Shown: positions 33,611 to 55,255 of the stretch, piece after piece
Numbering within the stretch: the first letter of the stretch is position 1
Layout: each line of letters starts with the position of its first letter
Assembly (NCBI RefSeq): GCF_053078305.1
Contig: NZ_CP166879.1
Strand: one strand, 5' to 3'
Length of the DNA stretch: 64,000 nucleotides
Program-made: the position numbers and the translations under genes
The notes under the pieces: model-generated
What the model was told of the DNA's origin: nothing
Databases searched by the model: none
What the model saw: only the letters and a program-made list of their open reading frames with translations

Positions 33611-33822
33611 AGAGCTTCCTTTTGGTGTCGCCTTCCCAGGCGTCTGATATGCTTTTGTGCAACAGTGAGTCAGAACTTACATCTGACTCACTGATAGTAA
33701 AGTCTGTTTGAACTCTTCAGGCCTTAAGTAAACGACTCGACGTTTTAACTGGCCTGGCTTTGAGGCGCAACATACTACACTATCTTTATGGTTAAAGCTT
33801 GTTTCGATTATCATCAGCTTAA

Positions 33823-34473
33823 TTACCAGCCACCACCGCCTCCGCCACCCGCGCCGCCGCCAGCACCACCACCGGAATAACTTCGCCCCAACAAACTGGT
33901 ATTGGCCCCCAGACTCAGGTGCATCTGTAATGAGAACAAAACGCCACTACGGGCAATTTCCGGGGCGCTAACAGCCGCTGTGAGTGATGGGGTGATACGT
34001 GCTACCCATTCTCTTCCAAGGTTTGCTGAGACTGCCCAACCTGGCAACGCGTAATCCAGTTTCCGTGTTTCCCCTTTCCGCCGCCGCCCACTGTGTGTTG
34101 CCGCCTCTTTACGCGCAAGATAGTTAACGATAGCTTCACCGTGGGCATAACGTTGCTGCCCAGTTTGGGTAAACTTTGGCAGAAAAATATACCCCATACC
34201 AGTGAGATAACCGGTCAGGAAAACAGCGCTAAAATAACCCGCTGGCATATACCAGTAAAAGAATACATCTCCGACATTGATATAGAGAGAATAAAAGGCC
34301 ACGCCTGAACAAATCAGCGGTAAAAACAAAGTGATGATTACACGATTAACGCAAGGCTTGTCATCATCGCGGGCAAACAAAAGCTCAAGGGAGCAAAATA
34401 AAAAAGGAAGAAGCCAGCAGATCATAATAAACATATCGCCCATGTAACCAGGTAAATCATTTGATACCGACAA
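33823..34473 (-). pseudogene. yciQ: 3' remnant of membrane protein gene yciQ, truncated by prophage insertion
   Basis: 216-aa ORF with TM helices and glycine-rich C-tail in the position of yciQ (upstream of rluB in K-12) but far shorter than a full-length gene; its 5' side runs into prophage-end sequence; ORF start is a TTG, not a real start. Confidence 0.5.
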
Positions 34474-34620
34474 GGGTTTTAGTGAAAGGAGGTGAAATCA
34501 CCTGTAAGATACTGAAATAAAACAGGTGATCGATGATTCTGGAGGTTGTTTAGTTTTGATACTGATTAAATAAAATCCGGTATAAAATTAAGGTATCGGC
34601 AACAAATTTGATACTGCACA
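34458..34620. repeat. Putative prophage left-end (attL) transposase-binding sites
   Basis: TTGATAC(C/T)G-like motifs at ~34461, ~34557 and ~34608 plus related copies (agatactga ~34507; inverted gccgatacc ~34592); about 96 and 51 bp apart, similar to my recollection of Mu L1/L2/L3 spacing. Confidence 0.4.
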
Positions 34621-34747
34621 TACTGCTTATGGACGTTTTTAAAAGTACTTAAAATGTCTTTTATGCTAAAAAGTTTATATCAATATCGATCTGGTCACAA
34701 ATCAAGTTGAAAGTGCTCGCTAAGTGCATAGCCTGGGCTTCATGGGG

Positions 34748-35266
34748 TTACGCTTTGGCTTCTTTATGGGTTAAATTGAAATGATGCTCCTTGGTTTCAT
34801 CTCCCTCGAAAATCTCTCTAACCTTTTGATCTGATAAATTATTAAGGCTCAATGCTGCCAGGCGTCGAATACCTGTTAAAGCGATCAACTCTTGATTCTC
34901 TTGATTGCAGAATTCCAGCAATTTTTCTACCCCTTTCCTTCTCAAGGTGTAAATAACTAATTCTTGCTCTTCTTGGCTCAAAGTGTCGATGAGTTCGAGC
35001 AACTCGCTATTGCCACCGTTCTTTTGAGGGGGCTGGTGTTTTATTTCTGCACTACCTGTAATGATGGAAACAACATGTGCAGGTAAGTCGCTTAAACGGT
35101 AGGCAAATGCTCTCCCTCTGATACCAGGTGTAGTTACCGAACGTTTTTCCCATCCTTCATTTTTTGCTCGTTTATGAAGCCCAGCCAGAGATGAAGGAAG
35201 ACCTCCAACCCCCAACAAGTCACTGGCAAGGATCCATTCTTGGTCAAGGATCATATCAAACTCCAT
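34748..35266 (-). CDS. Mu c-type prophage repressor
   Basis: 172 aa, transcribed leftward ~280 bp from the left end; N-terminal motif LPSSLAGLHKRAK shared with the transposase N-terminus (LPSSLAGLHKKAK). Confidence 0.7.
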   Translation of the reverse strand: MEFDMILDQEWILASDLLGVGGLPSSLAGLHKRAKNEGWEKRSVTTPGIRGRAFAYRLSDLPAHVVSIITGSAEIKHQPPQKNGGNSELLELIDTLSQEEQELVIYTLRRKGVEKLLEFCNQENQELIALTGIRRLAALSLNNLSDQKVREIFEGDETKEHHFNLTHKEAKA

Positions 35267-35483
35267 TTGATATTAACTTTTGTTTATATCTTTTATGCGG
35301 TTTATTTCAAAAATAACTCAATAAAAAACAAATAGATACAGAGCAAATTTAAAAATTTGAAATTAACCAGTTGATATTTACTAAGTTAATATCTAACATA
35401 TCAAACATACACTAGTGAGTAACTCAATAGAGTAGCACACATGAGTAATAAAGTTTGCCATAGAAAGTACACAGGGGGCCATT
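35267..35483. promoter_or_regulatory. Early regulatory region (divergent repressor/early promoters and operators)
   Basis: 217-bp AT-rich intergenic region between divergent repressor and ner, with ttgatat-type direct and inverted repeats. Confidence 0.5.
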
Positions 35484-35729
35484 GTGAGTCTTATTGAAGA
35501 TTGGTCTTCCGCCGATATAAAGGCAGCCTTAGAAAAACGCGATACCAATTTGTCACGTTTATCAAGGGAAAATAATTTGCAGCCTAGGACTTTGGGTAAT
35601 GCTTTGCGAGTTCCCTACCCTAAAGGTGAAAAGATAATTGCTAGGGCTATAGGTGTAGAGCCACAGGTTATTTGGCCTACTAGATATGAACGACGTGCGC
35701 GGAGGAAATATGTGGGTTGCAATGACTGA
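35484..35729 (+). CDS. ner: Ner/Nlp-family DNA-binding protein
   Basis: 81 aa; resembles Mu Ner / E. coli Nlp (...LSRLSRENNLQPRTLGNALRVPYPKGEKIIARAIGVEPQVIWPTRY). Confidence 0.75.
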   Translation: MSLIEDWSSADIKAALEKRDTNLSRLSRENNLQPRTLGNALRVPYPKGEKIIARAIGVEPQVIWPTRYERRARRKYVGCND

Positions 35730-37794
35730 ATTGATTTCATTCAGTGACCTACCTAGTTCTTTGGCAGGTCTGCACAAAAAAGCAAAGAGGGAAGCGTGGA
35801 AAACGCGGCTAAAACCAGGGGTAAAAGGGAAAGTTTTAGAGTGTGAAATAGGAGCTTTGCCTTTAACTGTTCAGCAGGCAGTACGCGAACGCCATGCCCT
35901 GCAACTGATGACGCAAAAAGCCGATGAATCACCGGCTCCGGTGGTGACAAAGGCCAGACGCTCACCTGCCGTGGTTGATGCGGTGGAGGCATATCGCGGA
36001 TCACCCCAACTGATGGTCGAACGCCTCAATGCCCTGACTGAAAATCAGCGCCAGGTGGCTGATGCACGAATCGCGATCGTCAGCGAAGTTCTGAAAGTCG
36101 CGCAACAACCTGGTTTCAGCTGTGCGAAGGCTATCCGGTTTATCGTTGACAACCTGGCACGTTCGCAGTTGGACGAGCGCATTGTGGCAATGGTTGAGAC
36201 GGCGAACGCCAAAAAGGGAAACAGCCGCGCGTTAAGTGAAATCACGCTGAAACGCTGGATTGCGGCCTTTAACAAGGCGCAGAACGCCGCTGAACGCCTG
36301 CTTTTACTGGCACCGGGTAAGCGCCAGGAAATAAAAGCCGAAGATATTAACTGGCTGCCCGAATTTCTGGCGCAGTATCGCCAGTCAAACGGCCGACCAA
36401 TGACCGAGGCTTACGAGGATTTTGTCGCTGAATGGCAGCACCGGCACGCCGATGAGCCTTATATGCTCGATATCATGCCGTCTTATGACACCATTCGCCG
36501 CGCAATGAAGAAACTGCCGGAAGTGGTGAAACAAAAAGGCCGGGTGACCGGCAGTGAATACCGCCAGCTTGAGGGATTCACGCGCCGCGACTGGTCAAAA
36601 ATGCCGGTGAATTATGTCTGGATTGGTGACGGTCACGGCATGAAGCTGAAATGCGCACACCCGGTTCACGGTCGGCCATTTGCACCGGAAGTGACCTTTG
36701 TTATCGACGGTGGCACGCGCTTTGTGGTGGGCTGGAGCCTTGACCTGGCTGAAAATGTTTTCGCCGTAGCCGGTGCCATACAGCACGGCATTCGCCATCA
36801 CGGCAAACCGTTTCTGTATTACTCGGATAACGGCTCCGGGGAAACCGCCGACATCCTGGATAAGGAGGTTGTGGGGATACTGCCGCGACTGGGGATTAAT
36901 CACCCGACCGGGATTGCCGGTAATCCGCAGGGACGAGGCATTATCGAACGGCTTAACCGCACATTACCGATGCGCATAGCCCGTAAATACCGCACCTATT
37001 TCGGGAAAGGTGCAGATCGCGAGACGTTACGCAAAACCAACCGCGATTTACGCTCGGCATTTACTGCCCTGCAACAGGGCAAACGGCTGAACGCCCGGCA
37101 GCAGTCAGCGATGCGTGATTTACCGTCCTGGTCTGAACTGATTGATGCCATTCGTGACGGTGTTGAGTGGTACAACAACCGGCCGCACGATGAATTACCG
37201 GTGAAGCCGAACGGCAAGCATTACAGCCCGGCGGAGTTCAGAAAAAAACGCCTGGCGGAAGAGGACACGGAAATTGAATGGCTGTCCGATGTTGAGCTGC
37301 GGGATATGTTCCGGCCGATGGTGGAACGCCCTGTAAGACGCTGTGAAATACGCTGGCTGAATAATATTTACTACGCGCCCGAGCTGCGTGACGAGCATGG
37401 TCGTAAGGTGCTTATCAGCTATGACATTCATGATGCCGAACGAATTACCGTACGTCGCCTGGATGGCAGCGTGATTTGCGAGGCGGTATGGGACGGTAAT
37501 AAACGCGAAGCCTTCCCGGTTAGCGCGGAATACTACAAACAGCAGCAACGCCTTAAAGGCATGCGTAAACGCGCAGAGGAAAAAATCCGTGATGCCGAGG
37601 ATGAGGTTGTCAACGTGCTGGAGCACAAGCCGCAGGAGCCCTGGCTGGAAAACATATACCGCCCTGTGGGTAATACGGTGACCGTTCAGCAACCGGTCGC
37701 TGACGATGAACCTGATGAAGAATACGAGCGTAATTTCCAGCGGGGATTGCAGTTGCTGGAAGCGAAATTAAAAGAAAATGACCCGCTGGCCTGA
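35710..37794 (+). CDS. Mu-type DDE transposase (MuA-like)
   Basis: ORF 35686..37794; N-terminal repressor-like DNA-binding domain; DDE core (WIGDGHG, YYSDNGSGE); start codon ambiguous. Confidence 0.9.
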   Translation: MWVAMTELISFSDLPSSLAGLHKKAKREAWKTRLKPGVKGKVLECEIGALPLTVQQAVRERHALQLMTQKADESPAPVVTKARRSPAVVDAVEAYRGSPQLMVERLNALTENQRQVADARIAIVSEVLKVAQQPGFSCAKAIRFIVDNLARSQLDERIVAMVETANAKKGNSRALSEITLKRWIAAFNKAQNAAERLLLLAPGKRQEIKAEDINWLPEFLAQYRQSNGRPMTEAYEDFVAEWQHRHADEPYMLDIMPSYDTIRRAMKKLPEVVKQKGRVTGSEYRQLEGFTRRDWSKMPVNYVWIGDGHGMKLKCAHPVHGRPFAPEVTFVIDGGTRFVVGWSLDLAENVFAVAGAIQHGIRHHGKPFLYYSDNGSGETADILDKEVVGILPRLGINHPTGIAGNPQGRGIIERLNRTLPMRIARKYRTYFGKGADRETLRKTNRDLRSAFTALQQGKRLNARQQSAMRDLPSWSELIDAIRDGVEWYNNRPHDELPVKPNGKHYSPAEFRKKRLAEEDTEIEWLSDVELRDMFRPMVERPVRRCEIRWLNNIYYAPELRDEHGRKVLISYDIHDAERITVRRLDGSVICEAVWDGNKREAFPVSAEYYKQQQRLKGMRKRAEEKIRDAEDEVVNVLEHKPQEPWLENIYRPVGNTVTVQQPVADDEPDEEYERNFQRGLQLLEAKLKENDPLA

Positions 37795-37865
37795 AATAAA
37801 AAAATAACCCGAGCGGCGACTCAGGTTATTTGATTAAACAAGGTATCAAATGAAAGGTTAATAAT

Positions 37866-38798
37866 ATGACTGATATTAACGATGTAATCAAGACCATTGA
37901 TGAACTTATTGATGGCGGCGTACTGACGCAGTATGCCATCGCCAGAGAGGCGGGAATTTCCGACGGCACATTATCGGCTTTCCGTAAGGGAAAATATAAA
38001 GGCGATAACGCTGCTGTGGCTGCTTCCCTGCGTTCCTGGTATGAGAACTGGAATAAACAAAGCGCACTGCCGGAACCGCCGCAGTTTGTGGAAACGCAGA
38101 CAGTCCAGGAGCTGCGCACACTGTTTCAGGCGGTTCGTCTGATGGGCTGTATTAACGTTATTGTGGGCGTACCGGGTGTGGGTAAAACGGCCACTGCCCG
38201 TAATTACTGCCAGGAGCAACCAAACACCTGGATGATCACCCTGTCACCCGCGCACTCCAGCGTCACGGAGTGTCTGCTGGAGCTGGCCGATGCGCTGGGG
38301 ATTGATTACACCCGCGCGAACAAAGGGGCATTATCCCGCGCCATCCGCCGTCGCCTGATGGGAACGCGTGGACTGGTGATTGTGGATGAGGCGGATCATC
38401 TTGGTATTGACGGTCTGGAGCAACTCCGGGCAATTCAGGACGCCACGGGGATCGGGATGGTGCTTATTGGTAACCCGCGCGGATTGTTTAAAGGTGGACG
38501 CCGCGCCTTTGATGATTTATCGCGCCTGTTCAGCCGTCTTGCCCGTACAAAACAACTTCGCAAGGCCAAAAAGGCGGATGTGCTGGCCATTGCCAGTGCG
38601 TGGGGGATCAGTGGTGAGGCCGAGCTGGCCGTCATGCAGGCTATCGCTGAAAAGCCGGGAGCGTTACGCGTTCTGACACATACGCTTAACCAGGCGTGGC
38701 TCACCGCCAGCGGTGAAGGCGCGGCGCTGACAGAAAAACATATTAATGCGGCCTTTAAAGAGGTTTATACCAACCCTGAATTACTCTCACAGGTGTGA
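37866..38798 (+). CDS. Mu B-like AAA+ ATPase (target DNA activator)
   Basis: 310 aa; N-terminal HTH, Walker A GVPGVGKT, Walker B VIVDEADHL. Confidence 0.85.
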   Translation: MTDINDVIKTIDELIDGGVLTQYAIAREAGISDGTLSAFRKGKYKGDNAAVAASLRSWYENWNKQSALPEPPQFVETQTVQELRTLFQAVRLMGCINVIVGVPGVGKTATARNYCQEQPNTWMITLSPAHSSVTECLLELADALGIDYTRANKGALSRAIRRRLMGTRGLVIVDEADHLGIDGLEQLRAIQDATGIGMVLIGNPRGLFKGGRRAFDDLSRLFSRLARTKQLRKAKKADVLAIASAWGISGEAELAVMQAIAEKPGALRVLTHTLNQAWLTASGEGAALTEKHINAAFKEVYTNPELLSQV

Positions 38799-54308: not shown

Positions 54309-55255
54309 TGCCTACCCCGATTACACCGGCGATGATCACCGCCCTGATGACGGGCTACCGTTCTGATTTTCAGGCCGGGATGTCCATGGCCCCGTCGCAG
54401 TACAAAAAAATTGCGATGACCGTGCCCTCCACATCGAAATCCAACACCTACGGCTGGCTGGGGCATGCGCCTCATTTTCGTGAGTGGATTGGTTCTCGTG
54501 TGATCCAGAAAATGAAAGCGCACGGTTATTCCATTGTAAACAAGACCTGGGAAGATACCGTCCCTGTTAATCGTGATGATTTTGAGGACGATAATCTCGG
54601 TATTTACTCGCCTTTATTTCAGGAGCTTGGTCGTGCCGCTGCTGTTCAGCCGGATGAGCTTGTATTTGCTGCTCTGCGTGATGGTCTGAAAAGTGCGTGT
54701 TACGACGGTCAGAACTTCTTTGATACCGAACACCCCGTCTACCCAAATGTGGATGGTACCGGTGATGTGGCGCTGGTCAGCAACATGTTTGTGGCAAAAA
54801 CCGGCTCTGTCGGTGCACAGGCAGATTACAGCGGACCGGCCTGGTATCTGCTCGACTGCTCCCGTGCAATAAAACCCATCATCTATCAGAGCCGCCGCAA
54901 GGTTGAACTGGTTGCACAGACAAAAATTGATGAAGGTCGCGCATTCACTGATAACGAGTTTGTGTTCGGTGCATCCGTTCGTCACAACGTGGGCTACGGC
55001 TTCTGGCAGATGGCCTACATGATGCAGTCACCGCTGACGCTGGATGCGCTGTGGCATGGCTGGTCCGCCATGCGTGAGTTTACCGCTGACGGTGGCCGCA
55101 AACTCGGCATCAAACCCACCCATATTGTTGTCCCCACCTCGCTGGAAAAACAGGCGGTGCAGCTGCTGGAGCGTGAACTGTTCGCAGACGGAAACGCAAC
55201 CGTCTCTAACGAGATGAAGGGCAAGCTGGAGCTGGTTGTCGCGGATTATCTGTAA
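54308..55255 (+). CDS. Major capsid protein (Mu T / gp34-like)
   Basis: 315 aa; start overlaps scaffold stop. Confidence 0.8.
   Translation: MPTPITPAMITALMTGYRSDFQAGMSMAPSQYKKIAMTVPSTSKSNTYGWLGHAPHFREWIGSRVIQKMKAHGYSIVNKTWEDTVPVNRDDFEDDNLGIYSPLFQELGRAAAVQPDELVFAALRDGLKSACYDGQNFFDTEHPVYPNVDGTGDVALVSNMFVAKTGSVGAQADYSGPAWYLLDCSRAIKPIIYQSRRKVELVAQTKIDEGRAFTDNEFVFGASVRHNVGYGFWQMAYMMQSPLTLDALWHGWSAMREFTADGGRKLGIKPTHIVVPTSLEKQAVQLLERELFADGNATVSNEMKGKLELVVADYL

Follow-up and report, generated by a model that had tools for sequence, protein, structure and literature searches.

The prophage in yciQ, its left terminus and its genes

The window analysed here, a single stretch of 64,000 nucleotides, carries at 33823-34442 on the minus strand the remnant of yciQ (DUF2207), a host gene recognised by its identity to intact yciQ and cut by a prophage. 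Over bases 33700-34442 the window matches the yciQ of about 3970 E. coli genomes at 99.7% identity, and rluB adjoins. Host homology ends at 34442, where identity to an intact yciQ (locus L192) stops with no identical base beyond; the listed yciQ open reading frame extends to 34473 because the reading frame enters phage DNA. The element begins at 34443 with 5'-TGTAACCAGGTAAATCATTTGATACCG. Its terminal 5'-TG (34443-34444, plus strand) marks the start of homology both to the insert of GenBank record LC727895.1 and to the prophages of 12 E. coli genomes, whose flanks are unrelated, and is presumed to be the point of cleavage and joining by the transposase.

The sequence between 34443 and the last base of the window is collinear both with phage Mu and with the LC727895.1 insert. 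This Stx1a phage record contains a 39,337-bp insert labelled 'Bacteriophage Mu-like phage', which the window prophage matches at 79-98% identity in ten collinear blocks over most of the prophage length. The authors of LC727895.1 described their own Mu-like phages as resembling Sp18 of E. coli O157:H7 Sakai and as occupying variable positions (PMC10132054). Sp18 has been reported to be an intact, packaged, non-circularising Mu-like phage (PMC2669165), and the insertion sites of Sp18-related phages are reported to be strain-specific (PMC7430833). Judged by these sequence comparisons, the window element is a Sp18-type Mu-like prophage of E. coli, a member of a known family, inserted in yciQ. The prophage type is present in 214 of 5426 complete E. 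coli genomes (about 4%), the same survey giving 259 right-end places, and no insertion at the yciQ site was found among the complete E. coli genomes of the collection searched.

The last base of the window corresponds to only about 28 kb on the Mu map. Since the prophage is collinear with both Mu and the 39.3-kb relative and continues past the end of the window, its right end lies about 10 kb outside. A right end within the window was considered and rejected, as the other exact matches to the end motif described below fall in host DNA (10021, minus strand) and inside a phage gene (54720, plus strand). For the matches of about 90 bp to the left end that occur in many genomes, a separate small mobile element was considered and rejected; they belong to heteroimmune prophages of this family, whose left ends they are.

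The left-end genes follow the order c-ner-A-B, as in Mu. The c-like repressor gene (34748-35266, minus strand) encodes a Mu-type winged-helix DNA-binding domain (Pfam HTH_Tnp_Mu_1, E = 1.5e-6) and is annotated as 'DNA-binding protein' in relatives. The c-ner intergenic region (35240-35483) contains four operator-like, immunity-specific copies of ATATCAA/TTGATAT and is presumed, by analogy with Mu, to combine the operator with a transpositional enhancer. One more repeat of the ATATCAA/TTGATAT type is found at 34669-34683, between the third left-end repeat (L3, see below) and the end of c. A ner-like gene (35484-35729, plus strand; Pfam HTH_35, E = 6.7e-27) is followed by the A gene (35686-37794, plus strand), which encodes a MuA-family DDE transposase of 702 residues (Pfam Mu-transpos_C, E = 1.5e-17, and HTH_Tnp_Mu_1) and which starts 8 codons later in the RefSeq annotation of relatives. 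The B gene (37866-38798, plus strand) encodes a MuB-like AAA+ activator of target DNA (Pfam Phage-MuB_C, E = 3.6e-25, and AAA_22). Further into the element, RefSeq annotates a 'tRNA-OTHER' of about 80 nt between two head-morphogenesis genes in relatives L007 (21325-21404), L008 (18559-18638), L009 (18300-18380) and L010 (18590-18669); ARAGORN predicted no tRNA in the portion of the window occupied by the prophage.

Searches by sequence alone detected in the A protein just the MuA enhancer-binding subdomain and retroviral integrase cores. Aligned with MuA, the A protein is 21% identical in the N-terminal 390 residues and 32% in the C-terminal 148. The DDE triad (D315/D381/E421) is invariant in 69 A-protein homologues. 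An AlphaFold (AF2) model built from these 69 homologues (mean pLDDT 87) starts with an N-terminal winged helix and continues through a disordered linker into two helical bundles (residues ~95-300); the remainder consists of an RNase-H-like core, a beta-barrel and a C-terminal helix. The best matches of the model in the PDB were the MuA chains of the transpososome 4fcy (E = 1e-18 and 1e-17, ~550-570 aligned columns), with TnsB of Tn7 and CAST elements next.

Repeats at the left and right ends

The attL array, as delimited by motif search and comparison with relatives, occupies 34443-34620 on the plus strand. The first-pass annotation had described at least three direct repeats at the left end of the prophage, and this is borne out by exact copies of TTGATACYG at 34461-34469 (TTGATACCG), 34556-34564 and 34608-34616 (both TTGATACTG), all on the plus strand and spaced by 95 and 52 bp. 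The three copies share the longer 9-mer TTTGATACY and stand at offsets of 19, 114 and 166 from the terminus at 34443. We designate them L1, with the core TTTGATACCGA at 34460-34470 (plus strand) and its TTGATACCG motif 19 nt from the terminus, the offset of R1 in relatives; L2, with the core TTTGATACTGA at 34555-34565 (plus strand; offset 114, 95 bp from L1); and L3, with the core TTTGATACTG at 34607-34616 (plus strand; offset 166, 52 bp from L2). The conservation visible at each site covers only about 11-12 bp, compared with 22 bp in Mu, and a second half-site is not clear.

To assess chance occurrence we used dinucleotide-preserving shuffles (n = 100). The motif TTGATACYG has 5 exact matches on both strands of the 64-kb window against 0.67 expected, an excess of about 7-fold that none of the 100 shuffles equalled, and 3 of the 5 fall within 156 bp. 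Under a Poisson model based on base composition, three or more copies of TTTGATACY would fall on one strand of a 174-bp stretch with a probability of about 2e-10. Matches to TTGATACYG with one mismatch number 43 in the window against 21.6 expected.

Two further, related copies had also been claimed for this region; these presumably correspond to matches with 1-2 mismatches, which did not survive comparison. The interval 34458-34620 contains one 1-mismatch match, TTTATACCG at 34578-34586 (minus strand), while AAGATACTG at 34507 (plus strand) has two mismatches to the motif and CCGATACCTT, on the minus strand at about 34592, is another of the 1-2-mismatch matches. Both TTTATACCG and CCGATACCTT are absent in the other immunity type (see below), and AAGATACTG sits in a block that is conserved as a whole; the comparison of immunity types gave no evidence for any of the three as a site.

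The block in question is the spacer between L1 and L2 (34472-34530, plus strand), which is 97% conserved between immunity types. It contains AGGTGA/TCACCT/AGGTGA repeats and a 9-bp inverted repeat (34497-34505 / 34522-34530), whose hairpin is weak (DNA fold z-score -2.05). By analogy with Mu, we would guess that this spacer serves as a packaging signal or as a spacer for a bending protein. A scan of the left end for terminators and promoters returned nothing above shuffled sequence.

The right end was studied in six complete, independently inserted relatives, two of which have left ends 99.7-100% identical to that of the window. Their targets are ypdA, meaB, the yahO-yahN spacer, an oxidoreductase gene, the tail tape-measure gene of another prophage and an Stx phage; together with yciQ in the window these give seven unrelated flanks, two of them in phage genes. 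The first-pass annotation had named the right end as the place to look for inverted copies of the motif. These are present in all six relatives (the window's own right end lies outside the window), as three inverted, inward-pointing copies at offsets of 19, 41 and 76. Read from the outside in, the right end is TATAGCGCGGCGATTTTTTTGATACCGATTTGCATTTCATTTGATACCG...TTTGATACTAAAT in 6/6 relatives. L1 and R1 therefore stand at the same distance, 19, from their respective termini, and R1 and R2 are spaced by 22 bp.

In one complete relative of 39,232 bp, TTTGATACY occurs 8 times, and 6 of these copies are the end sites. The internal copies correspond to window positions 37842-37850 (minus strand), in the spacer between A and B, and 54719-54727 (plus strand), inside a late gene; both are present in each of the five complete Sp18-type relatives. 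The one between A and B was considered as an additional site and set aside, as the sister clade described below has no TTCAAGATA counterpart near A-B.

The right terminus reads ...GCGCTATA-3' in 6/6 insertions (L003/L006, L004, L007-L010), and the family thus ends 5'-TG...TA-3'. Each of the six insertions is flanked by an exact 4-bp repeat (AGAG, CTGA, GTCA, TTTT, CGCA and CCAG). A 5-bp duplication was rejected: with the boundary shifted by one base in either direction, it fits only 2/6 insertions each way. The empty-site test confirms the length of 4 bp, as the ypdA flanks joined with a single CTGA reconstitute intact ypdA with 100% identity over 296 bp. A 4-bp duplication had already been annotated in GenBank by the depositors of LC727895.1. 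In the literature on Sp18 and STEC Mu-like phages that we consulted, we found no description of the end-binding motif, the terminal TA or the length of the duplication. For the window prophage we predict that the right junction would read ...CGCCGCGCTATA|CCCA|CCAGACTCATTCC, with a 4-bp CCCA duplication in yciQ.

Immunity types, the sister clade and the transposase

Prophages of the same family differ in their immunity genes. Immunity types are distinguished by their c and ner genes, their operator-like repeats and the first ~60 residues of their A proteins, the remainder of which is 96-98% identical. The diverging segment of A corresponds to window positions 35686-35871, the first ~186 bp of the gene, which encode the N-terminal winged helix and diverge in step with c and ner. 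In the other immunity type (L004/L009) the operator-like repeats are three copies of AAAATACC and not ATATCAA/TTGATAT. Comparison of the window with L004 gave 85/88 identical bases at offsets 1-88 and about 42% identity outside the sites at offsets 89-200, where L2 and L3 still stand at 114 and 166.

The same pattern was seen in IMG/VR, where the triplet spacing of 95/52 is retained in about 20 loci whose A proteins have 91% identity or more. The distance from the first motif to A in these loci falls into three classes (about 1190, 1225 and 1374-1402 bp), which implies three or more immunity modules. Across immunity types the end motif and its offsets stay the same. On this sequence comparison, the end motif goes with the body of the transposase and is separate from the immunity module and the repressor.

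A sister clade, found in E. coli, Salmonella and other hosts, has A proteins 71-75% identical to that of the window. We examined the left ends of five loci (L041, L049-L051 and L055) and the right ends of four (L122, L123, L126 and L145). TTGATACY is absent upstream of A in the sister-clade loci. Their left ends carry TTCAAGATA(A/G) three times instead, with spacings of 71/52 and at the same offset from a terminus that reads TATGACTAGGTAATTTATTCAAGATAAC. To find the right ends we searched for two copies of TTCAAGATA 10-16 nt apart (a spacing of about 22 bp); this returned many unrelated matches together with the other end of the contig of L055 (L126) and three further right ends. Each of the sister right ends has three inward-pointing copies of TTCAAGATA with spacings of 22 and 35, equal to those of the Sp18 type, and their flanking bases are visibly homologous to the Sp18 type, for example TATAGCGCGGCGAATTATTCAAGATAGATTTGCA. 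As sequence, the TTCAAGATA copies in the Sp18 geometry are what a reading of the repeats as transposase sites predicted for these ends. For the sister element of which both ends were available, each terminus is TA and the repeat is the 4-bp AGGA.

An intermediate type is represented by L042, whose A protein is 77% identical to that of the window and which keeps the motif TTGATACT, with spacings of 104/42 that approach the 105/40 of Mu and with a Mu-like L1-L2 spacer. The L1-L2 spacing thus varies across the family (95, 104 and 71 bp). P0008 was considered as a representative of the TTCAAGATA clade and discarded, as tblastn places it in the L042 type, which uses TTGATACT.

We then compared the A proteins domain by domain on the translated loci. 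For residues 95-175, pairs with the same motif are 98, 98, 75 and 69% identical, and pairs with different motifs are 51-57% identical. The pair L042 and L049, which have different motifs, shares 97% identity in the core and 100% in the beta-barrel but only 57% in residues 95-175. The change of motif tracks the divergence of one helical DNA-binding domain of the transposase, a correlation drawn from sequence and not a proof.

Interpretation and comparison with known systems

We conclude that the three TTTGATACY repeats at 34460-34616 are very probably the L1-L3 sites for the prophage's own A transposase, forming attL together with the TG terminus. The repeats are read in this way because they are non-random, are inverted at the other end, keep a conserved register and co-vary with the transposase. 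In the corresponding mechanism, by analogy with Mu, monomers of the A protein would dock on L1-L3 and R1-R3 with the helical domains located after the N-terminal winged helix, and the winged helix itself would contact the operator/enhancer segment that separates c from ner. L1 and R1, at equal distance from the termini, would position the catalytic DDE cores there. The ends would then be synapsed, nicked at their 3' termini and finally joined to target DNA.

The first-pass annotation had placed the start of the element at about 34458 and had counted a left end elsewhere as evidence against its interpretation. The start did have to be moved: the true end at 34443 lies 15 bp to the left of 34458 and 18 bp to the left of the first motif. 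Yet the interpretation is strengthened by this shift, as a left end at 34443 puts L1 at the same terminal distance as R1. The comparison of ends across related prophages that it had proposed was also favourable, with the motif and its positions kept across heteroimmune variants.

Other roles for the repeats have to be weighed against this reading. As operators for the phage repressor (or Ner), they would silence the ends in the lysogen; both the repressor and the N-terminus of A carry a Mu-type winged-helix domain, Mu ends are reported to bind the Mu repressor as well (PMC3820752), and the operator-like TTGATAT of the window type has six bases in common with the end core TTGATAC. Some cross-binding of the end motif by the window-type repressor is possible given these six bases. 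Prophages with a different repressor, ner and operators (AAAATACC) nevertheless keep the same end motif at the same offsets, and the motif changes only when the transposase body changes, which leaves a primary role as operators very improbable. We regard as more doubtful still that the repeats are part of a pac signal read by the terminase. Their position in the leftmost 180 bp of the prophage would suit such a signal, and Mu pac lies near the left end, between L1 and L2; but the motif is also found three times, inverted and at the same terminal offset, at the right end, where pac is not expected, and the conserved block between L1 and L2 is a better candidate for pac than the repeats.

A host factor of the IHF type could also be imagined to bind the repeats. 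The IHF consensus is WATCAANNNNTTR, and the reverse complement of the motif, GTATCAAA, contains WATCAA, its TATCAA matching the first half of that consensus. A TTR element at the right distance is nevertheless found in 0/6 sites, and a site for a host protein would not switch at all six positions (to TTCAAGATA) in a sister clade that lives in the same hosts; this explanation we consider very unlikely, even more so than packaging. The least probable of all is that the repeats cluster by chance in AT-rich end DNA and have no function. A short motif with many 1-mismatch matches in the window might invite this idea, but it is refuted by the excess of exact copies, by their clustering (Poisson ~2e-10), by the register that is kept amid diverged flanks and by the mirrored right end.

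Taken as transposase sites, the repeats are an ordinary feature of Mu-like phages, here with its own recognition sequence. Their value lies in the exact boundary and end structure now fixed for a prophage type that is mobile in STEC genomes, Stx phages being among its targets. The signature of the ends consists of TGTAACCAGGT...TTTGATACY on the left, three inverted copies ending ...GCGCTATA on the right, and a 4-bp duplication. It permits precise annotation, and search rules that expect TG...CA and duplications of 5-6 bp would miss such prophages. For transposition biology the gain is incremental, adding another end array of the MuA family together with a natural switch of specificity that is usable experimentally. 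With evenly balanced confidence, we propose further that in the Sp18-type series of E. coli and Salmonella all six sites switched together (TTTGATACY to TTCAAGATA) with the geometry fixed, that the switch maps to a helical domain of ~80 residues in a transposase otherwise 90-97% identical, and that the series has a 4-bp stagger with TG...TA or TA...TA termini. If this is true, the Sp18-type series would be a ready-made system for studying how MuA-family transposases read their ends and set the target stagger.

The closest known system is Mu, for which we computed the site positions from NC_000929. Both phages have three subterminal sites per end, L1 and R1 equidistant from the termini, a spacing of 22 bp between the R1 and R2 cores and a long gap between L1 and L2, with an L1-L3 span of 147 bp here and 145 bp in Mu; they also share the left terminus TG, the gene order c-ner-A-B and the MuA-like fold of the transposase. 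The first-pass annotation had gone further, calling the spacings close to the L1-L2 and L2-L3 intervals of Mu. This overstates the likeness, which is one of plan only: the core-to-core spacings are 105/40 bp in Mu and 95/52 here. Its claim of Mu-type end sites with a specificity of their own is supported, by an A protein 21-32% identical to MuA and by the absence of the motif from Mu ends. The Mu sites follow the consensus ...AARYRCGAAA, whereas the recognition sequence here is TTTGATACY. Allowing up to one mismatch, TTGATACY does not occur in the Mu ends, and the CGAAA core does not occur in the first 260 bp of the window prophage. The core also lies ~4 bp further from the terminus here, R3 is direct here and inverted in Mu, the right terminus is TA here and CA in Mu, and the duplication is 4 bp here and 5 bp in Mu. 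As far as sequence goes, the window prophage is therefore not a Muvirus proper, differing in its att sites, in its termini and duplication, and in its relatedness to MuA.

The immunity types resemble the heteroimmune pair Mu and D108. The window prophage and L004/L009 have the end sites in common, and also A beyond its N-terminal ~60 residues; those residues, c, ner and the operators are different. Such modular divergence has been described for D108 and SfMu relative to Mu (PMC4406740). The Sp18 type differs from that pair in being another phage lineage, with at least three immunity modules. Elements that use TnsB (Tn7 and CAST) likewise carry repeated transposase sites in asymmetrically spaced arrays at each end, but here there is no TnsA/C/D or CRISPR targeting, the partner protein is MuB-like and the element is a phage. 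As regards termini and target duplications, the latter are 5 bp in Mu and 6 bp in B3 and in Leptospira prophages, some of which have TA-TA ends (PMC8705779). These Leptospira TA-TA prophages and B3 show that TA termini, and duplications other than 5 bp, are within the range of MuA-family phages. They differ from the Sp18 type in their 6-bp duplications, whereas the Sp18 type combines a 4-bp duplication with mixed TG...TA termini, and the TTCAAGATA clade has TA at both ends.
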